Shown here in pieces: positions 1,059 to 52,589 of a DNA stretch of 62,953 nucleotides (positions are counted from its first letter, which is position 1; every line of letters begins with the position of its first letter). Location of the stretch: NCBI GenBank assembly GCA_964462325.1, contig CAYWYQ010000001.1, positions 1 to 62,953 on the forward strand, written 5' to 3'. The position numbers and the translations under genes are program-made. The stretch comes from an uncultured Gammaproteobacteria bacterium. GTDB taxonomy: Bacteria > Patescibacteriota > Patescibacteriia > UBA9934. The notes beneath the pieces are model-generated. The model was not told where the DNA came from. It ran no database searches and was given only the letters and a program-made list of their open reading frames with translations.

Positions 1059-1229
1059 ATGTCACAGGACTATCTTATTAAACTTGAATCAGAAGGTGAT
1101 GAAGCTGGAGTAGGGAAGGGACACATGATCCAAACCCACAAAAATACTCGTAAGCTGAAGGATCGGCTGAGAATTAGGAAATTTAATCCTGTAGCCAAGA
1201 AACATACTTGGTATAAGGAAACTAAATAA
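1059..1229 (+). CDS. rpmG: 50S ribosomal protein L33
   Basis: The C-terminus DRLRIRKFNPVAKKHTWYKETK matches the L33 signature. ATG 1059 gives the usual ~56 aa; the track start at 1020 is an upstream extension. Confidence 0.8.
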   Translation: MSQDYLIKLESEGDEAGVGKGHMIQTHKNTRKLKDRLRIRKFNPVAKKHTWYKETK

Positions 1230-1237
1230 AATCTTAA

Positions 1238-1345
1238 ATCACATCATTTATCGGCTTAGATGCTCAAATTCGTCCTCAACGTACGTTTCAGTACTTCTGC
1301 GGAAATTCTTGCATCTGCACCGAGAACTAATGCAATTTAAGAATT
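1238..1345 (+). repeat. LH (long-hairpin) element, diverged copy
   Basis: Apex GTACGTTTCAGTAC at 1281-1294. Flanks align with the copies at 13469 and 52421 (GATCTATCGGCTTA...CCTCA.CGTAC). Confidence 0.6.
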
Positions 1346-1358
1346 TATTTCAGAGAAA

Positions 1359-1385
1359 AGAACGCTATTCAGCGTTCTTTTTTTT
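1359..1385 (+). terminator. intrinsic terminator downstream of rpmG
   Basis: AGAACGCT-ATTC-AGCGTTCT forms an 8-bp stem followed by T7. Confidence 0.75.
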
Positions 1386-1399
1386 ACGTCTGATAAATT

Positions 1400-1500
1400 T
1401 GCGATCTATCGTTTCATATTTCCGTCGCTCGACACCGGACTTTTGGGTACGATTTACTACGCTACTCAATCTTCAACGATATATCATCTTAATTTTTATA
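1400..1500 (+). repeat. LH element, degenerate copy
   Basis: GCTCGACACCGGACTTTTGGGTACGATTTACT aligns with the centres of the copies at 3985 and 13764. Confidence 0.45.
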
Positions 1501-1514
1501 GAACACTTCCAAGT

Positions 1515-3969: not shown

Positions 3970-3984
3970 TTTAGAACTTGTCTT

Positions 3985-4075
3985 TTTCTTCCTATACGTT
4001 GTCACAACTCCGGTGCTCGACACCGTACCTTTCAGTACGGCTTACTCTTGCTCCTCATTGTTCCTAGTATAGAAA
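3985..4075 (+). repeat. LH element, diverged copy
   Basis: GCTCGACACCGTACCTTTCAGTACGGCTTACT (apex 4024-4039) aligns with the centre of 13764-13886. Confidence 0.5.
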
Positions 4076-4097
4076 GAAAAATCCTACGTTTGTAAAA

Positions 4098-8364: not shown

Positions 8365-8366
8365 GC

Positions 8367-8490
8367 TTCCGCTTGAAAATGGACGAACTTTGTATTCAGT
8401 TCTCCGTTCCGCGACTCATGTACGTTTCAGTACACTCGTCTTTGGTACTCGAACTTCAAACAAATTTCATTCCATTTTCTGCGCGGACGG
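8367..8490 (+). repeat. LH element, full-length reference copy (124 nt)
   Basis: 5' TTCCGCTTGAAAATGGA ... apex GTACGTTTCAGTAC (8420-8433) ... TCCATTTTCTGCGCGGACGG 3'. The arms are partly complementary. Confidence 0.75.
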
Positions 8491-8622
8491 GGTTAGAGAG
8501 AACAGACATATCCAGAGTTTTCTTGACGTATTTTTCTGTATGTGAATCTGGTTTATGCACAGGTTCTTTAAGAAAATGAACGTTTATGCTAACATTTTGA
8601 CGTAATCAGTAAACAAAAAAAT

Positions 8623-10625: not shown

Positions 10626-11462
10626 ATGAATATTACAAAGGCAGATGGGGTTATTGAACCATTTGATGAGGAAAAGGTAATACGAAGCATTGTGCGTACA
10701 GGGGCGAGTCATGAAACAGCAAAGCAAGTTTTGCTGAAAGTGAAGCCACAGATAACGGAAGGAATGACAACGGCGAAACTTTATCACTTGGTTCGAACAG
10801 CTCTGGAAGAAAAAAGTATTTGTTACTCATGCAGGTATAATTTGCGTGAGGCGATCTTTAATATGGGTCCAGCTGGGTTTAATTTTGAATATTACATTGC
10901 AGCCGTTTTGAGGGCATATGGCCATGATGCGAGTGTACCTCGGGAAGAAATTCAAGGATCTTGTGTTTCTCATGAAGTAGATATTGTGTCAGAAAAGGAT
11001 GGTCGAACGATTTTTATTGAAGCGAAATTTCGTAATGAGAGAACACGTTCTGTGAATCTAAAAGACACAATGGCAACGTGGTCAAGGTATGTGGATTTGG
11101 TTGATGGTGGAGCAACGGGAAAGGGAATACATTTTGATGAGGTGTGGATTGTGACAAATGCTCGTTTTTCAGATCGAGCAAAGCAATTCGGTACATGTAA
11201 GGGCATGCGACTTATCGGGTGGAGTTTCCCAAAAGATCAATCATTTGAAAAGTTAGTAGATAAGGTACATTTATACCCCATTACGGCAATTACAGATGTA
11301 CAGAAGGGGGAATTGAGGCAATTTGCTGAGTCTGGGTTATTACTCTGTAAAGATATAGAGAAACTTGAACCAGAAGAGTTAGCGAGGCGGGTAGATGCTT
11401 CTGTTCAACGTTCTGAAGAAGTAATAGGACTTTGTTCCCGAGTCGTGCATGGTGATAAATGA
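10626..11462 (+). CDS. ATP-cone domain fused to a PD-(D/E)xK (Mrr-like) restriction endonuclease domain
   Basis: The N-terminal ITKADGVIEPFDEEKVIRSI... is ATP-cone-like. The centre has HEVDIV...IFIEAKF (D...E-x-K nuclease motif). Confidence 0.6.
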   Translation: MNITKADGVIEPFDEEKVIRSIVRTGASHETAKQVLLKVKPQITEGMTTAKLYHLVRTALEEKSICYSCRYNLREAIFNMGPAGFNFEYYIAAVLRAYGHDASVPREEIQGSCVSHEVDIVSEKDGRTIFIEAKFRNERTRSVNLKDTMATWSRYVDLVDGGATGKGIHFDEVWIVTNARFSDRAKQFGTCKGMRLIGWSFPKDQSFEKLVDKVHLYPITAITDVQKGELRQFAESGLLLCKDIEKLEPEELARRVDASVQRSEEVIGLCSRVVHGDK

Positions 11463-11531: not shown

Positions 11532-11624
11532 GTCATCCCAGACCTGATCTTCGATCTTTACCTTGTTTGTACATAGTATATGCCACCGGAGTTTATCCTG
11601 AACGTGATTCAGAATGGGAATGAC
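11532..11624. repeat. two GTCAT-type hairpin repeats
   Basis: GTCATCCCAGACCTGATCTTCGATC (11532-11556) and, inverted, TATCCTGAACGTGATTCAGAATGGGAATGAC (11594-11624). Confidence 0.5.
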
Positions 11625-11929: not shown

Positions 11930-12086
11930 AAAACTAATTATTTTTCAGATGTGTAGTGACGGGGCTTGTCATGTGAATTGTCCCGTGCCTAACATCTGAA
12001 AAACGATACACGTTTACATGTGATGTTAGATCTGGCAGCACTATACACATTTTTACCTTTTTTGGCAAGCCTCGTGCATGGTGGCG

Positions 12087-13465: not shown

Positions 13466-13468
13466 GGG

Positions 13469-13593
13469 TTCCGCTTGTCTATGAGCGATCTATCGGCTTA
13501 TAATTTCGATTTTGTCCTCACTGTACGTTTCAGTACAGCTGTGGAAAATCTCAATTCTTCACCAATATCTCATCTCATATCCTGCGCGGACGG
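13469..13593 (+). repeat. LH element, full copy
   Basis: TTCCGCTTG ... apex GTACGTTTCAGTAC (13523-13536) ... CCTGCGCGGACGG. Confidence 0.7.
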
Positions 13594-13632
13594 GGTTCAA
13601 GGCAAATTACATCCACTCTATTTCACTGACAA
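13594..13632 (+). repeat. LH half-element (3' arm only)
   Basis: GGTTCAAGGCAAATTACATCCACTCTATTTCACTGACA aligns with the 3' arm of 40783-40909. Confidence 0.5.
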
Positions 13633-13635
13633 AAG

Positions 13636-13759
13636 TTCCGCTTGTCTATTGGCGCTCTGTAGGATCAAGATTGCGAACCTGTCCTCATCGTACGTATTAG
13701 TACGCCTGCGGAAGGTTCTTATCTTTCGCCTAAATAGCATCCAATATCCTTCACGGACA
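13636..13759 (+). repeat. LH element, full copy
   Basis: TTCCGCTTG ... apex GTACGTATTAGTAC (13690-13703) ... TTCACGGACA. Confidence 0.7.
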
Positions 13760-13763
13760 AAAG

Positions 13764-13886
13764 TTCCGCTTGATAATTAAGGAACTTTACATTCACTTTT
13801 TCGGCCCTCGATACCGTACCTTTTAGTACGACTTACTTCGGTCTTCAATGTTCAAGTAAATTTCATTTAACTATCTACGCGGACGG
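13764..13886 (+). repeat. LH element, full copy
   Basis: TTCCGCTTG ... apex CGTACCTTTTAGTACG (13815-13830) ... CTACGCGGACGG. Confidence 0.7.
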
Positions 13887-13930
13887 ACTCGTTACGTAGC
13901 GAAAGGCCATTAACTCTTATTGGTCAGGTA

Positions 13931-14231: not shown

Positions 14232-16328
14232 ATGAAAGAATTTATTTTATCAGGAAAAGATTCGATAGGTAACTTAAGGATTGATTATGAGAACGAGTTA
14301 AATGACGAACAGTTACAAGTTGTAAAAGATGGTTCGGGTGCGGCTTTGGTACTCGCAGGTGCCGGTTCAGGAAAAACAAGAACAATTACCTACAGGGTTG
14401 CTTGGCTATTAGAGCATGGAATTACACCGGAAAATATTCTTCTTTTAACGTTTACGAATAAAGCGTCAAGAGAGATGATTGAGCGTGTAGAAGGGCTACT
14501 CGGACAATATCCACGCGGATTATATGCGGGAACATTTCATTCGGTTGCAAATAAATTGCTACGTAAATATGCAACAAGGATTGGTTATGAACCAAATTTT
14601 TCAATATTAAGCGATGAAGATTCGCGTGATCTTATCTCTCTCTGCGTAAAGGATTTAAAGATTGATACAAAAAAACGGCGTTTCCCAAGTGCGAAAATTC
14701 TACAAGGGTATATATCCTATTCGAGAAATAGACAAGATGATTTTGAGTGGTTTATAGAATCTAATCACCCAAAAATGCTCAATATTGTTGGTGAAATGAA
14801 GGCGGTTGCTAATCGGTATGCTGAGCAAAAAAAGCAACAAAATTCAATGGATTTTGATGATTTGCTCATCAGGTTATTGGAGCTGCTGAAGCAAGAAGAA
14901 ATTCTGAATCAATTATCCGGCCAGTTTCAATATGTGCTTGTAGATGAGTTTCAAGATACGAATATTGTACAGGCAAAAATCATCCATCTGCTCTCATCTG
15001 TACATCAGAATATATTAGTGGTTGGCGATGATGCACAGAGTATTTACTCATTTCGCGCTGCAGAAATACGAAATATCCTTGATTTCCCGAATAATTATCA
15101 TGGCTCAAAAACATTTAGACTCACAAAAAATTATCGTTCAACACCACAGATTCTGTCTGTGGCGAATGCGGTGATTACAAACAACACGGAACAGTTTAAA
15201 AAGGAATTGCAGGCGATTCATCATGCAGGTGATTTGCCCCAAGTGATTCCCGCTCGTTCAGGGGCTCAGGAAGCTCAATTTGTTGCAGAAAAAATTCAGG
15301 AGCTTGTTTCGAAGGGTGTATCATATAAGCAAATAGCTGTTTTATTCCGTGCAGCATTTCATTCACAAGCGCTTGAATTTGAATTAATGCGTCGGGACAT
15401 AGCCTATGATTATCGTGGAGGAATGAAGTTTTTTGAGCGTTCTCATGTGAAGGATGTCATTGCACACTTGCGTTTAGTGCATAATGTAAGAGATGGCATG
15501 GCATGGGTCAGGGCTCTTAGGATTCATCCCGGAATTGGATTAGTGACCGCAGGGAATATTGCGGCGCAGGCTGGAATATCCTCATCGGTAAGAGAGGTTG
15601 TTGAATGTATTTCACCAAGAGGAAAAAGGGCGCAATCTGGCTGGGAGGGGTGCAAACGTATACTACAAAAGATTCTTTCGGTCCCAGCAATACCTTCTGA
15701 AATGATTAAGGCTCTTGCTAGCAGTAAGGATTACCAGGCCTATATTGAAAATGAATTTCCAAATTATCAAGATAGACTAGAAGATTTGGAGCAGTTCGCT
15801 ATTTTTGCTGAACAGTTCTCAGACATATCAGATTTTCTTGATGCAGTAAGTTTGACAGATGAACATGGTGCACCGAATCAACAAAAAAGTCAGACGGACG
15901 ATCGCATTATTCTGTCCACGGTGCATCAGTCAAAAGGGCTAGAATGGAATTCGGTATTTGTACTCAATTTGGCAGATGGTGCATTTCCGCATAAGAGAGC
16001 CTATGGTGAGGAAGGGGCGATTGAGGAAGAAAGACGTCTATTCTATGTTGCCGTCACACGAGCAAAGGAACATTTATTTATGTCTTATCCAGTGACAACA
16101 GGTTATGACCATGTTGAAATTCAGCAACCGTCCATGTTTCTAGATGAAATACCGGAACAGATGTATGAAACGATAAAATTAACCCACGCTCGCAATTCAT
16201 TTCAAAGAAAACCAATGTATAATAGGTATGTAGCTCATGAAGAGCCAACCATCGTACTCGATGATATGGGTGAAACAATTTCTAGGCCGGCGCCTAGTTC
16301 ATTTTTAAGAGGTATAGACGAATTATGA
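14232..16328 (+). CDS. UvrD/PcrA/Rep-family (SF1A) ATP-dependent DNA helicase
   Basis: VLAGAGSGKTRT (Walker A), VDEFQDTN, TKNYRST and VHQSKGLEW motifs. Confidence 0.9.
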   Translation: MKEFILSGKDSIGNLRIDYENELNDEQLQVVKDGSGAALVLAGAGSGKTRTITYRVAWLLEHGITPENILLLTFTNKASREMIERVEGLLGQYPRGLYAGTFHSVANKLLRKYATRIGYEPNFSILSDEDSRDLISLCVKDLKIDTKKRRFPSAKILQGYISYSRNRQDDFEWFIESNHPKMLNIVGEMKAVANRYAEQKKQQNSMDFDDLLIRLLELLKQEEILNQLSGQFQYVLVDEFQDTNIVQAKIIHLLSSVHQNILVVGDDAQSIYSFRAAEIRNILDFPNNYHGSKTFRLTKNYRSTPQILSVANAVITNNTEQFKKELQAIHHAGDLPQVIPARSGAQEAQFVAEKIQELVSKGVSYKQIAVLFRAAFHSQALEFELMRRDIAYDYRGGMKFFERSHVKDVIAHLRLVHNVRDGMAWVRALRIHPGIGLVTAGNIAAQAGISSSVREVVECISPRGKRAQSGWEGCKRILQKILSVPAIPSEMIKALASSKDYQAYIENEFPNYQDRLEDLEQFAIFAEQFSDISDFLDAVSLTDEHGAPNQQKSQTDDRIILSTVHQSKGLEWNSVFVLNLADGAFPHKRAYGEEGAIEEERRLFYVAVTRAKEHLFMSYPVTTGYDHVEIQQPSMFLDEIPEQMYETIKLTHARNSFQRKPMYNRYVAHEEPTIVLDDMGETISRPAPSSFLRGIDEL

Positions 16329-16897: not shown

Positions 16898-16900
16898 GGC

Positions 16901-16984
16901 TTCCGCTTGAAAATTAACGAACTTTGCATTCACTCTTTCCTGTCCTCAACGTTCAAGTAAATTTCATTTAATTTTCTGTACGGG
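16901..16984 (+). repeat. LH element lacking the apex
   Basis: TTCCGCTTGAAAATTAACGAACTTTGCATTCA...CCTCAA|CGTTCAAGTAAATTTCATTTAATTTTCTGTACGG. The central ~40 nt are absent. Confidence 0.6.
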
Positions 16985-16985
16985 A

Positions 16986-17136
16986 TTTCGCTTGAAAATG
17001 GACGATCTGTCGACTCGTTGCGCATCGAAAGGTCTGTACCTCGATCGAGAGGTCGGACCTTGAAATGGACGTTTCAGTACAGCTGCGGGATATCTTCAAG
17101 CTTCATCGACATCTCATTCCATTTTCTGCGCGGACG
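16986..17136 (+). repeat. LH element carrying a nested 50-nt hairpin insertion
   Basis: TTTCGCTTGAAAATGGACG...[17012-17061]...TGAAATGGACGTTTCAGTAC...TCCATTTTCTGCGCGGACGG. Confidence 0.6.
17012..17061 (+). repeat. 50-nt hairpin element (GACTCGTTGC..ATCGAAAGGTC.GTACCTC.ATCGAGAGGTCGGACCTT)
   Basis: Near-identical to 40909-40958. It folds as AAGGTC.G-T-ACCTC / GAGGT-CGGACCTT. Confidence 0.65.
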
Positions 17137-17168
17137 GTTTTGTTGCTGAAAGACATGTCCGACTTTAT

Positions 17169-17211
17169 TCCGGAGGTTCAACCTCCAATATCCGAGGTTC
17201 AACCTCCAATA
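17169..17211. repeat. two tandem 21-22-nt units, each containing GAGGTTCAACCTC
   Basis: TCCGGAGGTTCAACCTCCAATA followed by TCCGAGGTTCAACCTCCAATA. Confidence 0.8.
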
Positions 17212-17244
17212 AAAGCCTTGTATGCCAAGAAATGCTATCACAGT

Positions 17245-17326
17245 GTGTTTATTGATGTTCAGTACAATAAACACATCCGAGGTTCAACCTCGAGGTTGAA
17301 CCTCGGTACGGCGAGGTTGAACCTCG
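17245..17326. repeat. AT-rich hairpin followed by three GAGGTT(C/G)AACCTC palindromes
   Basis: GTGTTTATTG-N10-CAATAAACAC, then CCGAGGTTCAACCTCGAGGTTGAACCTCGG (17277-17306) and GCGAGGTTGAACCTCG (17311-17326). Confidence 0.8.
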
Positions 17327-26839: not shown

Positions 26840-27187
26840 ATGAAAACAGTTCAAAATCAAGGAGTACAGGTCTGGGATATTGTTGTATTATTCCCGCTCC
26901 TATCAGTCGTTATTGTATTATTCGTCATGACATTAGTTGGATTTCAACTTGGTCAGGGAAATGAAATGACGCCATTCTTCCTATCTGTAATTTCTGTCGG
27001 GGGATTTGTCGCCTATGTAGGATCAATTGCATCAATGCTAGCCGGGTATATTTACGGAATTCACAGATTGTATACCCGAACAAAATTGGATGAGAAATCA
27101 AAGTTGTTTTGGCTGTGGATGGTGTTGTTGTTTAGTCCTATATCGGTACCGATACTACACTTCAAACACTTAAGAGCTACCGCTTGA
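26840..27187 (+). CDS. small membrane protein, unknown function
   Basis: Three or four TM helices. The last four codons, including the TGA, lie inside the LH element that starts at 27178. Confidence 0.45.
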   Translation: MKTVQNQGVQVWDIVVLFPLLSVVIVLFVMTLVGFQLGQGNEMTPFFLSVISVGGFVAYVGSIASMLAGYIYGIHRLYTRTKLDEKSKLFWLWMVLLFSPISVPILHFKHLRATA

Positions 27188-27299
27188 AAATGGACGAACT
27201 TTGTCCTCAGTTCTTTGGTCCTCGCTCCATGTACGTATTAGTACACTCCGCTACGGTCCCCGAACTTCGTACAAATTTCATTCCATTTTCTGCGCGGAT
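27178..27299 (+). repeat. LH element, full copy
   Basis: TACCGCTTGAAAATGGACGAACTTTG ... apex GTACGTATTAGTAC (27231-27244) ... TCCATTTTCTGCGCGGAT. Confidence 0.7.
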
Positions 27300-27360
27300 A
27301 AGGTTCAAGGAAATAGCATCCAGTTTTCTGCGCGGGGCTACCGCTTGAAAATGGACGATC
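27300..27360 (+). repeat. LH half-elements (a 3' arm, then a 5' arm)
   Basis: AGGTTCAAGGAAATAGCATCCAGTTTTCTGCGCGG followed by CTACCGCTTGAAAATGGACGATC. Confidence 0.55.
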
Positions 27361-27383: not shown

Positions 27384-27398
27384 CGAGGTTCAACCTCG
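27384..27398. repeat. GAGGTTCAACCTC palindrome
   Basis: CGAGGTTCAACCTCG. Confidence 0.8.
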
Positions 27399-27456
27399 TA
27401 CGATGAGGAATCACCGATTAATTGTATTTACTGGTGATTTGTAAATAAACACATAT

Positions 27457-27529
27457 TCGAGGTTCAACCTCGAGGTTCAACCTCCGATTTAGCTGTGGAT
27501 AAGCAGGTCCGACCTTGAGGTCGGACCTT
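27457..27529. repeat. composite module: two GAGGTTCAACCTC copies, TGTGGATAA, then paired AGGTC(C/G)GACCT
   Basis: TCGAGGTTCAACCTCGAGGTTCAACCTCC-GATTTAGC-TGTGGATAA-GC-AGGTCCGACCTTGAGGTCGGACCTT. Same architecture as 41183-41231. Confidence 0.75.
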
Positions 27530-38110: not shown

Positions 38111-38249
38111 TACGCTTGAAATTCATCCGTTTATATATTGGCGCATTTTTTTCACACATCTACGCGTTTCACTGCACTGTGCGTTCTAGTGCACTTCAGT
38201 TCTGCACTCGATGATTTAAACAAATTACATCCAGTCAATTACGCGGACA
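38111..38249 (+). repeat. LH element, divergent subfamily
   Basis: ACGCTTGAAATTCATCCGTTTATATATTGGCG ... apex GCACTGTGCGTTCTAGTGC ... AATTACATCCAGTCAATTACGCGGACA. The 5' arm matches copy 40783. Confidence 0.55.
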
Positions 38250-38300
38250 TGTTTCAAGGAAATATCATCTCGTTTTCTGTGCGAACTATGTCGGACCTTA
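38250..38300 (+). repeat. LH half-element (3' arm) plus a GTCGGACCTT motif
   Basis: TGTTTCAAGGAAATATCATCTCGTTTTCTGTGCGAACTATGTCGGACCTT. Confidence 0.45.
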
Positions 38301-40780: not shown

Positions 40781-40782
40781 GC

Positions 40783-40909
40783 ACTCCGTTTATATACTGG
40801 CGTACTTTGCATTCACATCTTGCGCACTTCGCTACACTGTACGTATTAGTACACTTCCGCTCAGTGCTCGATGTTCAAGCAAATTACATCCAGTCTATTT
40901 CACGGACGG
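40783..40909 (+). repeat. LH element, full copy
   Basis: CCGTTTATATACTGGCG... apex GTACGTATTAGTAC (40839-40852) ... AATTACATCCAGTCTATTTCACGGACGG. Confidence 0.65.
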
Positions 40910-40958
40910 ACTCGTTGCCTATCGAAAGGTCCGTACCTCAATCGAGAGGTCGGACCTT
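40909..40958 (+). repeat. 50-nt hairpin element (second copy)
   Basis: GACTCGTTGCCTATCGAAAGGTCCGTACCTCAATCGAGAGGTCGGACCTT, compare 17012-17061. Confidence 0.65.
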
Positions 40959-41093: not shown

Positions 41094-41122
41094 CCGAGGT
41101 TGAACCTCGAGGTTCAACCTCG
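41094..41122. repeat. back-to-back GAGGTT(C/G)AACCTC palindromes
   Basis: CCGAGGTTGAACCTCGAGGTTCAACCTCG. Confidence 0.8.
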
Positions 41123-41182
41123 CACAGTGAGAAATGGAGGATATATTGTATTTATTGATGATTTATAAAAAAATACTTATAC

Positions 41183-41231
41183 GAGGTTCAACCTCCTGTG
41201 GATAAGTAGGTCGGACCTTGAGGTCGGACCT
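41183..41231. repeat. composite module: GAGGTTCAACCTC, TGTGGATAA, paired AGGTCGGACCT
   Basis: GAGGTTCAACCTCC-TGTGGATAA-GT-AGGTCGGACCTTGAGGTCGGACCT. Confidence 0.75.
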
Positions 41232-48474: not shown

Positions 48475-48520
48475 CCGAGGTTCAACCTCGATATATTATC
48501 CCCACCGAGGTTCAACCTCG
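48475..48520. repeat. two CCGAGGTTCAACCTCG palindromes 30 bp apart
   Basis: Copies at 48475-48490 and 48505-48520. Confidence 0.8.
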
Positions 48521-48564
48521 CATATCCAAAAAGTGATTAAATAATACTCTTTTGCATAGATTAC

Positions 48565-48624
48565 CCTCCCGAGGTTCAACCTCGAGGTTGAACCTCGGTG
48601 TTGGAGGTTGAACCTCGGGAGGGG
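48565..48624. repeat. 60-nt compound palindrome built from three GAGGTT(C/G)AACCTC units
   Basis: CCCTCCCGAGGTTCAACCTCGAGGTTGAACCTCGGTGTTGGAGGTTGAACCTCGGGAGGGG. The outer 20 nt are perfectly complementary. Confidence 0.8.
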
Positions 48625-50511: not shown

Positions 50512-51987
50512 TTGCATCAAAGCAAAGAGGTTGAATCTGCAAAAAAAAGAAAAGAGGAAAAAACAGGAGAGGTTATTCCACAAAGTCCCGAGGTACAAAT
50601 TCAGAATTATTTAGATCGTTTTCAAGAAATCATTGATCGTGAGAATGGTCAGAGTCGACAAGACGGAATCGAAGCCATTAAGCGATTCATGCGTCGAAGA
50701 TTTGTCATACAGTCAGAAGATATACCAGAGTCTGTTTTTCTCTTAGAGCAGCGTATTGCAAGGCAGCTCGGTCATGGTCATGTAGAAATCACGGAAGAAT
50801 TCAAAAAACGCAAAATAAAAGAGATTATAGACAATCAAGTACAGTCACTCGATAAGTGGATAGACTATTTATCAAGCGAAGATGCGACATACCCGGATTG
50901 GGCAAAATATTGGGCATTCCGAAGTGTGACGGAAATGGGGAAACTCAAAAGGAAAGAAGGAAAAGATGGATCAATCACCGCCTCTTTTTCAAAACGGAAA
51001 AAAGACACTGCTTCAGCATTTCCGCCCATGAATCCACGCGCTCTTGCTCTTGTGGTAGATACAATTACAAAACAAGTACAAGAAAAGCAAAAACCAAAGA
51101 AAAAGAGGATGCCCCTTAAAAATATCAGTAAAAAACTAGACGACGCGGCATTTAGACAACTGACTTCAACAGAAAGCTTTTCCAAAATCTATGCACAATT
51201 TCTTGTTGAGCTTCCAGAATACTCAACAGAAGGACTACAGGAGATTCGCGGTGAATGGGTAAAGTATGATCAGGGGTCAAAACCAGATACGCTCGTGAAG
51301 TCCCTCGAAGGATATCCACTTGAATGGTGTACAGCTGGATATGACACAGCAGAATCACAATTACAAGGAGGGGATTTTTATGTGTACTATTCATTAAATG
51401 AAGATGGGAATGCACATGTTCCACGCGTCGCTATACGTATGGAGCAAGAACGTATCGCAGAAGTACGAGGTATAGCACCGAATCAAGAAGTTGATCCCTA
51501 TATTTCTCCCGTGATTGAAGAAAAGATGGAGGAATTTGGTAAAGAAGGTGAAATCTATCAAAAGCGAAGTCGGGACATGAAGCAACTGACGGATATAGAA
51601 ATGCGCTCACAGCATCAAGAGCTGACGAGGGAAGATCTTCGATTTTTGTATGAAATCGACGGACAAATTGAAGGATTTGGCTATAGCGGAGATCCACGTA
51701 TAGACGAATTGCTGGAAGGGAGGGATAGGCGATTAGACATTGCAACGGTATTGCAGGTTTCACCTGAACAAATAAGTTTTTCGCAAGAAGAGGCAATTGC
51801 AGGCGATATTGTATTCCATTACGGAGATCTTAATTTTCTGAGACTTACATCTGCAGAGGGACTCACACTTCCTGAATCTGTAGGCGGAAGCCTTAATCTT
51901 TGGAGACTTACATCTGCAGAGGGACTCACACTTCCTGAATCTGTAGGCGGAGACCTTTATCTTGGGGGACGCGCCGAGGGAGAATAA
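50512..51987 (+). CDS. protein of unknown function with a C-terminal 21-aa LRR-like tandem repeat
   Basis: TTG start. An upstream in-frame ATG (50458) is separated from it by TAA (50506). The central LEWCTAGY...GGDFYVYYS...VAIRME...IAEVRG is faintly PcfJ-like. The C-terminus has RLTSAEGLTLPESVGG twice. Confidence 0.6.
   Translation: MHQSKEVESAKKRKEEKTGEVIPQSPEVQIQNYLDRFQEIIDRENGQSRQDGIEAIKRFMRRRFVIQSEDIPESVFLLEQRIARQLGHGHVEITEEFKKRKIKEIIDNQVQSLDKWIDYLSSEDATYPDWAKYWAFRSVTEMGKLKRKEGKDGSITASFSKRKKDTASAFPPMNPRALALVVDTITKQVQEKQKPKKKRMPLKNISKKLDDAAFRQLTSTESFSKIYAQFLVELPEYSTEGLQEIRGEWVKYDQGSKPDTLVKSLEGYPLEWCTAGYDTAESQLQGGDFYVYYSLNEDGNAHVPRVAIRMEQERIAEVRGIAPNQEVDPYISPVIEEKMEEFGKEGEIYQKRSRDMKQLTDIEMRSQHQELTREDLRFLYEIDGQIEGFGYSGDPRIDELLEGRDRRLDIATVLQVSPEQISFSQEEAIAGDIVFHYGDLNFLRLTSAEGLTLPESVGGSLNLWRLTSAEGLTLPESVGGDLYLGGRAEGE
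51823..51966 (+). repeat. 63-bp tandem repeat (~2.3 units) inside the CDS
   Basis: A 48-nt core AGACTTACATCTGCAGAGGGACTCACACTTCCTGAATCTGTAGGCGGA is identical at 51841-51888 and 51904-51951. Confidence 0.85.
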
Positions 51988-52193: not shown

Positions 52194-52409
52194 ATGGCAG
52201 AAAAACAATTTATTGAAATGCGGGGATCCGTCGAAGAATCTCTTCCGGCGGGTAAATTCCGCATCAAGCTTGAAAATGATCAAGAAATCACAGGTCATTT
52301 GTCCGGTAAACTTCGGAAATTTAGAATCCGAATCATGCCAGGCGATGACGTAAAAGTGGAGATCAGTCCATATGATCTCACGAAAGGGCGCATCACTTAC
52401 AGATTTTAA
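52194..52409 (+). CDS. infA: translation initiation factor IF-1
   Basis: 71 aa, S1-like: ...[49 protein letters not shown]. Confidence 0.92.
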
Positions 52410-52420
52410 AACCCACTGAA

Positions 52421-52520
52421 TCGCGATCTGTCGTTTCAGTTCATCACAAATTTCCTCATCGTACGTTTCAGTACGTCTGCGGAATTTGTTTGAACTTCAA
52501 CGACATCTCATCGATTCATA
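52421..52520 (+). repeat. LH element, diverged copy
   Basis: Apex GTACGTTTCAGTAC (52461-52474). The flanks CCTCATC...TCTGCGGAA...CTTCAACGACATCTCATC align with copies 1238 and 13469. Confidence 0.6.
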
Positions 52521-52589
52521 GGATTTTAAACACGAAATAGATGATGAATCATTAAATTTCAAAAAATCTGAAAGGCATGCCGGTCTTTA

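Follow-up and report, generated by a model that had tools for sequence, protein, structure and literature searches.

The window examined here, the 62,953 nucleotides of contig CAYWYQ010000001.1 from an uncultured bacterium of the Patescibacteria, carries a dispersed family of intergenic elements of about 125 nt, each of which can fold into one long hairpin with a GTAC-N6-GTAC apex. Comparison of the copies establishes their membership of one family, the structure they share and its strand asymmetry, as well as their distribution and placement. The interpretation proposed, held at slightly less than even confidence, is that these elements are a family of hairpins co-transcribed within untranslated regions (UTRs), resembling the enterobacterial repetitive intergenic consensus (ERIC) and repetitive extragenic palindromic (REP) sequences, that their behaviour depends on orientation, and that they are the counterpart of the enterobacterial ERIC and REP sequences in the candidate phyla radiation (CPR). 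The feature is real and widespread, apparently uncatalogued, and unusual in its anatomy and placement.

Two covariance models were used to delimit the family. R1 was built from seven full copies and an RNAalifold consensus in the orientation adopted by an initial sequence-only reading of the window, and R2 from 27 diverse copies on the opposite strand. Scanning the window with R1 gave 13 significant copies in 63 kb, all on the plus strand (E 4e-33 to 2e-5), at 1249-1325, 1385-1508, 3970-4097, 8365-8492, 13467-13595, 13634-13762, 13763-13888, 16899-16989, 16990-17131, 27176-27303, 38123-38252, 40782-40911 and 52418-52518. At default settings R2 recovers 12 of these 13, the sole miss being the apex-deleted copy 16899-16989. 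The window contains GTAC-N6-GTAC 11 times, where 0.25 occurrences would be expected, and nine of the 11 are apexes of the element. Copies make up nearly 3% of the window, and their density in this lineage is about one per 5-7 kb.

These results agree in most respects with the sequence-only reading, which had noted the apex, a uniform orientation (here 13 of 13 in the R1 scan) and three head-to-tail copies, and had proposed scanning with an Infernal-type model. Its count of at least 14 full or partial copies becomes 13 significant copies plus fragments, the fourteenth item (27300-27360) being a 3' half-copy followed by a 5' stub. The head-to-tail trio at 13467-13888 is confirmed, with an extra half-copy at 13596-13633; within 13469-13886 each tandem unit starts with TTCCGCTTG, carries the GTAC-N6-GTAC apex and ends in CGCGGAC. 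A correction concerns copy 27176, which contains the stop codon of the open reading frame (ORF) 26840-27187. The copies and fragments are listed below on the minus strand, the better-folding strand described further on; bit scores are given for the two models where available.

1224-1352, minus strand: degenerate or partial copy; starts at the rpmG stop codon (1227-1229) and is followed by a canonical intrinsic terminator; R2 47.5 bits, R1 28.7 bits over 1249-1325.
1383-1509, minus strand: copy without the conserved terminal stem; R2 79.3 bits, R1 60.2 bits; orthologous copy at L007:1560-1685.
3970-4097, minus strand: degenerate copy, about 190 nt after tRNA-Thr(ggt); R2 50.2 bits; a strain synteny break lies about 35 nt beyond.
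8365-8492, minus strand: full copy; TAA stop of an NTP-transferase gene, 2 nt, then the terminal stem; R1 134.5 bits; missing from the orthologous L007 spacer.
13467-13595, minus strand: full copy, first of the trio; TAG stop of the DUF6938 gene, 3 nt, then the stem; orthologous copy in L007.
13596-13633, minus strand: half-copy (right arm in plus orientation), read directly from the sequence; begins GGTTCAAGG at the conserved TTCA loop and resembles the right arm of copy 40782.
13634-13761, minus strand: full copy, second of the trio; R1 125.6 bits, R2 104.2 bits.
13762-13888, minus strand: full copy, third of the trio, followed by a tail module, ACTCGTTACGTAGCGAAAGG; R1 115.2 bits, R2 97.8 bits.
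16899-16989, minus strand: apex-deleted copy, left arm joined to right arm at ...CAACG/TTCAAG (the slash marks the junction); TAA stop, 3 nt, then the stem; R1 60 bits.
16984-17139, minus strand: copy with an insertion of about 45-60 nt, matching the tail module, in the left arm (plus orientation); R2 57.9 bits.
27176-27303, minus strand: full copy; the TGA ending ORF 26840-27187 falls within it; R1 127.5 bits.
27304-27360, minus strand: fragments, a right-arm half-copy (start TTCAAGG) and then a 5' stub, TACCGCTTGAAAATGGACGATC.
38123-38252, minus strand: divergent full copy with apex GTGC...GTGC, between the minus-strand genes era (Era GTPase) and a 277-aa ORF; R1 102.3 bits, R2 73.6 bits.
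38253-38290, minus strand: right-arm half-copy fragment, TTTCAAGGAAATATCATC...
40782-40911, minus strand: full copy; TAG stop of the DUF3179 gene, 4 nt, then the stem; the convergent spacer beyond it holds the tail module and palindrome clusters; R1 133.7 bits.
52405-52532, minus strand: copy without the conserved terminal stem; starts at the infA stop codon; R2 93.7 bits, R1 76 bits over 52418-52518.

A 101-aa ORF with a TTG start (13475-13780) crosses the tandem copies and is almost certainly a spurious gene call.

Each copy forms a rod of about 50 bp, and its arms vary freely in sequence and remain complementary. Pairwise identity among the window copies is 48-82%. In the 27-copy alignment standard pairs fill 93.4% of cells, compared with 68.7% in shuffles, and double-sided changes are found in 25 of the 33 pairs; double-change cells number 218 where 72 are expected, and the observed values are reached in 0 of 500 shuffles. 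When the partner is shifted by one to three columns, pairing in this alignment drops to 30-40%. The apex (CGUAC, a 6-nt loop, GUACG) is conserved, and both the apex and the internal loops are retained across genomes of 38-60% GC. It is therefore the structure, not the sequence, that is conserved, and selection acts on the fold, in keeping with the earlier description of a dispersed intergenic family of single long imperfect hairpins. The imperfect terminal inverted repeats also described there shrink to a terminal stem of 5 bp only (TCCGC/GCGGA or GTCGC/GCGAC), and the outer stem is free in sequence across the wider family. A mini-ORF (ATG...TGA) in the conserved left arm was rejected, as it is not conserved among copies.

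The two strands of the element are not equivalent. In the orientation first adopted, G.U pairs are no commoner than A.C pairs (17 versus 22), and for this reason both strands were tested. The reverse complement is the more stable in 30 of 32 copies, by a mean of 10.2 kcal/mol (Wilcoxon p = 1e-6), and on that strand ten representative copies give fold z-scores of -6 to -16. For copy 8365-8492 the predicted RNA fold reaches -48.8 kcal/mol (z -7.6) on the minus strand, compared with -38.5 on the plus strand. The strong-fold strand also carries the recognisable motifs: G.U pairs outnumber A.C pairs by 58 to 11, 24 of 27 copies share a U.G wobble, one bulged A shows no variation, and four internal-loop positions are mostly G.A or A.G mismatches. 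Counted position by position, loop 1 shows G.A in 16 and A.G in 25 of the 27 copies, and loop 2 shows G.A in 26 and A.G in 25. A single fold, that of a locus outside the window (L030; such L-numbers label loci of this kind), displays five tandem G.A loops along the rod by eye. Running from rod base to apex, the consensus of the 5' side reads AAAAU..G-A-UGAGAU ... UGAA ... CGAG ... GAG.CGUAC-(6-nt loop), and from the apex back to the base the 3' side reads GUACG..GA ... CGGAG ... UGAA ... AGAUCGC..AUUUU. The better-folding, motif-bearing strand is thus the minus strand of the window, opposite to that of the first reading. With DNA energy parameters the asymmetry persists and is smaller, at 3.5-4.6 kcal/mol; since it appears with both parameter sets, the data identify the strand, and not whether RNA or single-stranded DNA is the acting molecule.

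In the window and in a related genome, the copies are found predominantly at gene ends. The strong-fold strand is antisense to the upstream plus-strand gene in 12 of the 13 window copies, and across window and relative the distance from stop codon to terminal stem is 0-4 nt in 10 of 14 gene-end copies, with a spacer of 100-350 nt on the far side. The relative's 768-kb contig (L007) was examined in two regions, about 88 kb in total. In the first of these, 49 kb long, seven of seven copies follow the ends of plus-strand genes, namely frr, a tetratricopeptide-repeat (TPR) gene, nrdA, nrdB, rpmG, the DUF6938 gene and a gene of 190 aa; of these, five touch or overlap the stop codon, and beyond it 3 nt intervene before the copy at nrdB and 27 nt before that at rpmG. 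No copy stands behind any of about 30 opposite-strand genes in the same regions. The earlier claim that each copy follows a plus-strand gene is too strong, because copy 38123 lies between two minus-strand genes and copy 3970 follows tRNA-Thr. On its strong-fold strand copy 38123 is sense to both neighbours and so departs from the gene-end pattern, as does the copy in the leader of a KH-domain gene (L052), which is also sense. With respect to replication polarity, GC skew and rRNA orientation disagree between regions. Promoter scans found no convincing minus-strand sigma-70-like promoter beside 8365, the 13467-13888 trio, 27176 or 40782. The window is otherwise ordinary chromosome, encoding UvrD, class II ribonucleotide reductase, a penicillin-binding protein, Mur ligases, alanyl-tRNA synthetase and ribosomal proteins. 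No transposase or integrase family was matched among its Pfam-scanned ORFs and the gene calls with precomputed Pfam matches, in line with what the sequence-only reading had stated.

Beyond this lineage the family extends well past the window genome, through other Uhrbacteria and Patescibacteria contigs at low copy number. A strict pattern found one locus among species-representative genomes, and a first metagenome pattern scan returned nothing. A pattern made of the apex and right arm found 33 metagenome loci on contigs of 38-60% GC, 22 of which match the model strongly, usually with one copy per locus even with filters off. No copy was found on viral contigs. Three element-bearing contigs (L029, L047, L042) encode proteins labelled as Candidatus Uhrbacteria or Patescibacteria group bacterium. 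For the DUF6938 protein, encoded ahead of the tandem copies, the homologues carry the names Patescibacteria, Uhrbacteria or Parcubacteria. Identical proteins are also found on marine metagenome contigs, and the host is accordingly placed as a marine CPR bacterium close to the Uhrbacteria.

In these low-copy lineages the strong-fold strand is usually co-oriented with its neighbours, at tight spacing and often among tRNA genes. The order tRNA-Gly, element, tRNA-Pro recurs at two loci (L021, L039), tRNA-Leu(caa), element, tRNA-Met, tRNA-Met is seen at L030, and elsewhere the element lies 3-11 nt before tRNA-Pro (L047), tRNA-His (L017/L024) or tRNA-Leu (L020). Sigma-70-like promoters stand upstream of the element and tRNA-Pro at L047 (TTGATG-17-TATGAT) and, as judged by eye, of the element and tRNA-His at L017 (TTGCAA-17-TACACT). 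At L050 a near-consensus TTGACA-18-TACAAT is placed 130 nt upstream of an element, and 6 nt separate the end of that element from the clpB start codon; at L052 a near-consensus TTGACA-16-TATGAT precedes a degenerate copy ending 12 nt before the KH-domain gene, with 7 nt remaining after the terminal stem. The promoters and the tight, co-oriented spacing suggest from placement that the element is a transcribed leader or spacer in low-copy genomes. One pair of loci permits a direct comparison of orientations. L045 and L030 share a promoter (TAGAC[AG]-17-TATGAT), tRNA-Leu(caa), the element, tRNA-Met and tRNA-Met, with the element inverted between them. At L045, with the element in the gene-end orientation, TTGTCA-17-TAGTAT provides a second promoter between element and tRNA-Met; at L030, with the element in the strong-fold orientation, only 7 nt separate the element from tRNA-Met and no second promoter was found. 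For this one pair, the contrast fits one orientation ending a transcription unit and the other being read through. The occurrence of either orientation at the same tRNA-Leu/tRNA-Met site also argues for some form of mobility.

Comparison with the relative indicates how the family evolves. Several copies occupy orthologous positions in L007; behind the DUF6938 gene, whose proteins are 79% identical, the stems of the L007 copy are completely different yet complementary. This conservation of position, taken with identities of 48-82%, implies that the family is old and kept by selection on structure, not the product of a recent burst. Copy 8365-8492 has no counterpart in the orthologous L007 spacer and was inserted or lost right after the stop codon; the filled and empty sites reveal no target-site duplication, and no conserved flanking tetranucleotide was found. 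Half-copies and the apex deletion alike have their breakpoints in common, at the conserved TTCAAG loop. A tail module of about 50 nt, composed as ACTCGTTGC..ATCGAAAGGTC.GTACCTC.ATCGAGAGGTCGGACCTT, comes after copies 13762-13888 and 40782-40911, and a further example interrupts copy 16984-17139. Other short repeats take part in the spacers, giving mosaics reminiscent of bacterial interspersed mosaic elements (BIMEs). A suggestion of species-specific termini was withdrawn once L001 and L007 turned out to be one 768-kb contig.

Several observations concern these spacers and contigs in their own right. A 13-bp palindrome, GAGGTT(C/G)AACCTC, has 18 exact copies in the window against 0.05 expected and constitutes a second repeat system, at 1684, 9357, 17173-17325, 27385-27484, 41096-41195 and 48477-48616. 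It clusters in six spacers, flanking an AT-rich core on both sides (an example being 27423-27458). Since one of the clusters occupies a convergent spacer, the palindrome is not simply a promoter operator for a plus-strand gene. AGGTC(G/C)GACCT has eight window copies against 0 expected (9082, 17050, 17354, 27505-27528, 40947, 41208-41231), often as adjacent pairs next to GAGGTTSAACCTC clusters and inside the tail module. In L007 a short repeat, ATCGAAATCCTGAGCCTGTCGAAGGATCTTTC, which forms a small hairpin, comes directly after several long-hairpin elements (11560-11620, 11965-12000, 15300-15335; also L054 at about 11162-11190) and is analogous to the tail module. Two strain contigs (L014, L016) agree with the window to 99% as far as 4132, a point about 35 nt beyond element 3970-4097, from which they run on into different, minus-strand genes. 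The segment 4400-6260, with PNP_UDP_1 and Amidase_6 genes, has a GC content of 0.50 compared with 0.40 elsewhere and is missing from L007. The segment from about 4132, next to tRNA-Thr and the element, represents either an assembly join or a variable island of small size. Within ORF 50512-51987, which lacks a Pfam match, positions 51822-51970 hold 2.4 copies of a 63-nt tandem repeat (87% matches). The taxonomic label of L001 (CAYFMS010000001.1), a metagenome-assembled genome titled "uncultured Gammaproteobacteria", looks wrong, as its proteins are those on the contig of L007 and it shares the CPR element.

Placement suggests that the element works as part of the neighbouring transcription unit, with an effect set by its orientation. 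In the strong-fold orientation it would be transcribed through, as a hairpin in a 5' leader or in the spacer of a tRNA operon. In the opposite orientation, which dominates in the window lineage, it would fold into a hairpin at the 3' terminus of the upstream message and end, insulate or protect that message, and the gene-end transcript would carry an imperfect hairpin of about 50 bp starting at the stop codon. The lineage of the window has amplified the element to its present density. Transcription, a stabilising or insulating role and the mode of spread are inferences. A more far-reaching version of this reading, which we regard as possible and rather doubtful, makes the element a new CPR-specific structured nucleic acid, a rod of regularly spaced tandem G.A pairs under a conserved GUAC hairpin that a putative dedicated protein would read in one direction only and that would serve as the main gene-end signal in a genome-reduced lineage. 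If this is true, one orientation would be read through as a leader or tRNA spacer and the other would end the transcription unit at the stop codon.

Several points weigh against the preferred interpretation as co-transcribed UTR hairpins. Gene-end copies keep their G.A and U.G features on the strand that is not mRNA, which a pure 3'-UTR RNA role fails to explain and which leaves a single-stranded-DNA role, antisense expression and a protein-mediated polar barrier as rivals. The rod is followed by no U-tract in either orientation, so the element is not a canonical intrinsic terminator, a candidate also rejected because a terminator scan does not pick out the elements as whole hairpins. Canonical terminators do occur at other gene ends in the window, one of them beside the element after rpmG. 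A terminator follows rpmG in both species (window 1353-1384, L007 1530-1552), beside or between elements, and the elements are therefore not the sole gene-end signal there. The orientation contrast comes from a single pair of loci, and transcription and 3'-end effects are deduced from position. At L038 a co-oriented tRNA-Thr lies only 19 nt downstream of an element in the "terminating" orientation, and L056:7640-7766 is sense to both neighbours and abuts neither.

Conservation of motifs on the non-mRNA strand speaks for the idea of a single-stranded-DNA hairpin of the REP type or of the paired-REP type known as REPIN, whose strand-specific fold would be the substrate of a single-copy HUH/Y1 enzyme, akin to the REP-associated tyrosine transposases (RAYTs), or of another structure-specific recombinase elsewhere in the genome that copies or moves the element, RNA effects being by-products. 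Such a substrate would also suit the persistence of the asymmetry with DNA parameters, the two orientations in one tRNA-Leu/tRNA-Met context, the presence/absence polymorphism at one site, the tandem, nested and half copies with breakpoints recurring at the TTCAAG loop, and the strong copy-number difference between lineages. It is nevertheless unlikely, because copies at 48-82% identity do not cluster near-identically around a master sequence, different species retain orthologous copies, no conserved flanking tetranucleotide or target duplication was found, and orientation does not track GC skew consistently; nor was any Y1/HUH, transposase or integrase family matched in the window or in the roughly 88 kb of the relative, among gene calls with precomputed Pfam matches. 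The classical form of mobility, a miniature inverted-repeat transposable element (MITE) derived from an insertion sequence with a DDE transposase and recognised by terminal inverted repeats and target-site duplications, was the leading label of the sequence-only reading. A palindromic, intergenic, multi-copy unit of about 125 bp without a transposase in the window, as expected of a non-autonomous element, invites that label. It is disfavoured, and in our judgement highly improbable, since the terminal match is 5 bp only and not family-conserved (about 10 bp or more being required), the clean insertion site has no target duplication, inter-copy identity is low with compensatory changes in the stem, and positions are conserved between species.

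Antisense expression would follow if the elements were small RNA genes, encoding a trans-acting rod, marked by tandem G.A motifs and partnered by a conserved protein, that RNase P or RNase Z would free from leaders and tRNA operons, the gene-end copies being antisense-transcribed or decayed paralogues. The ratio of G.U to A.C is typical of RNA and a U.G pair is conserved, at seven loci flanking tRNAs of the same orientation lie a tight 3-12 nt away, near-consensus promoters lie upstream, and apex and loops persist across 38-60% GC genomes. Against these stand the absence of a sigma-70-like promoter on the required strand at 8365, the 13467-13888 trio, 27176 and 40782, the antisense transcription into the upstream gene that at least 19 gene-end copies would need, the pairing of the variable parts with each other, which leaves no guide or target surface, and the occurrence of both orientations beside tRNAs; small RNA genes are accordingly a decidedly unlikely explanation. 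A polar barrier at the DNA level, in which a protein on the double-stranded element blocks RNA polymerase from one side (for instance a dimer on CGTAC-N6-GTACG with asymmetric flanking motifs), draws on the fact that gene-end copies all present the same end to incoming polymerase and leader copies the other, on the L045/L030 contrast, and on the operator-like 5-6-5 inverted repeat of the apex. A duplex-binding protein would leave unexplained both the compensatory evolution of about 30 base pairs and the purine-purine nature of all mismatches on one strand; moreover, L038 is an exception and no candidate protein was identified, and this explanation is improbable.

Several features make the element unlikely to be junk: it fills nearly 3% of the window, shows compensatory evolution, recurs in relatives of 38-60% GC and stands no more than four bases from stop codons. 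In Patescibacteria, whose genomes are very small and tightly packed, the ending, processing and stabilising of transcripts are almost uncharted. The element offers a testable handle on gene ends and tRNA-operon processing in an uncultivated phylum, and illustrates how a single structured module could serve in 5' leaders in one orientation and at 3' ends in the other. A practical gain is that a covariance model of the family would help CPR annotation and prevent spurious ORF calls such as 13475-13780, and the elements mark likely assembly breakpoints.

Among catalogued families, Rfam 15 gave nothing at gathering thresholds for the window and 18 loci, and nothing better than E=5 at permissive thresholds, which upholds the earlier remark that this is not a recognised named family; literature searches aimed at the element turned up no description of it. 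Signal recognition particle RNA, 6S, 5S, Y RNA, C/D-box or K-turn RNAs and hammerheads were rejected for want of an Rfam match and because their motifs do not fit on inspection; in the case of the K-turn, the tandem G.A pairs of the element lack the 3-nt bulge. Integron attC sites invite comparison by their emphasis on structure over sequence, their similar size, their meaningful folded bottom strand and their position after a top-strand gene. This similarity of geometry ends there: R''/R' core sites (RYYYAAC / GTTRRRY) and an integrase are lacking, the element also occurs in leaders and between tRNAs, and its neighbours are housekeeping genes (uvrD, nrdA/B, frr, infA, rpmG, dnaN) unlike those of cassettes, and an attC identity was rejected. 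Arrays of tandem interspaced guide RNA (TIGR) from Tas systems are repeat non-coding loci of CPR bacteria and phages that have been reported from parasitic bacteria, and some variants have palindromic stem-loops (PMC12045711). Their units are about 36 nt long, with two 8-12-nt repeats and 9-nt unpaired spacers, and lie beside a tas gene with a Nop domain (PMC12045711). The element, by contrast, consists of dispersed, self-paired rods of 125 nt without a tas gene, and a TIGR array was rejected because unit size and logic differ and neither such periodicity nor a Nop-domain gene is present.

The REP/REPIN-RAYT systems come nearer, as extragenic hairpin palindromes with strand-specific structural features and long vertical inheritance, clustered with other short motifs into mosaic spacers as in BIMEs. 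REPs near stop codons affect the upstream gene. REPINs are described as near-identical populations around a master sequence, unlike the element copies with their 48-82% identity; the element is moreover one 125-nt rod and not two REPs of about 25 nt, and no RAYT gene was found in the sequence read, which comprised the window, a few kb of strain contigs beyond its ends and approximately 88 kb of the relative; no transposase family was matched there either. The description by the sequence-only reading as a REP-like element or a structured UTR RNA was therefore in the right neighbourhood, except that in other lineages the position is not mainly the 3' UTR, and its alternative name of MITE is not sustained. 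The closest parallel in kind, as a structured intergenic repeat and not as a homologous family, is ERIC, also known as the intergenic repeat unit (IRU), an imperfect palindrome of about 127 bp in Enterobacteriaceae and Vibrio. The element has nearly its length and likewise a single long imperfect hairpin, lies between genes and yet inside transcription units, ranges from few to hundreds of copies between related lineages, and diverges in sequence by compensatory change that keeps the pairing. Yersinia ERICs are reported to have orientation-dependent effects on flanking mRNA. Homology to ERIC is not claimed, for the element belongs to a different phylum, Patescibacteria, has other conserved motifs and bears no evident sequence similarity to it. 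Unlike ERIC, it carries on one strand a conserved U.G pair and several tandem G.A loops at regular spacing, its CGUAC-N6-GUACG apex is strictly conserved, it lies 0-4 nt after stop codons and, in low-copy lineages, it often resides in tRNA operons. In kind the family falls among the interspersed palindromic repeats of bacteria; in detail it is set apart by its tandem G.A loops, strand asymmetry, conservation within a CPR clade, abutment on stop codons and embedding in tRNA operons.

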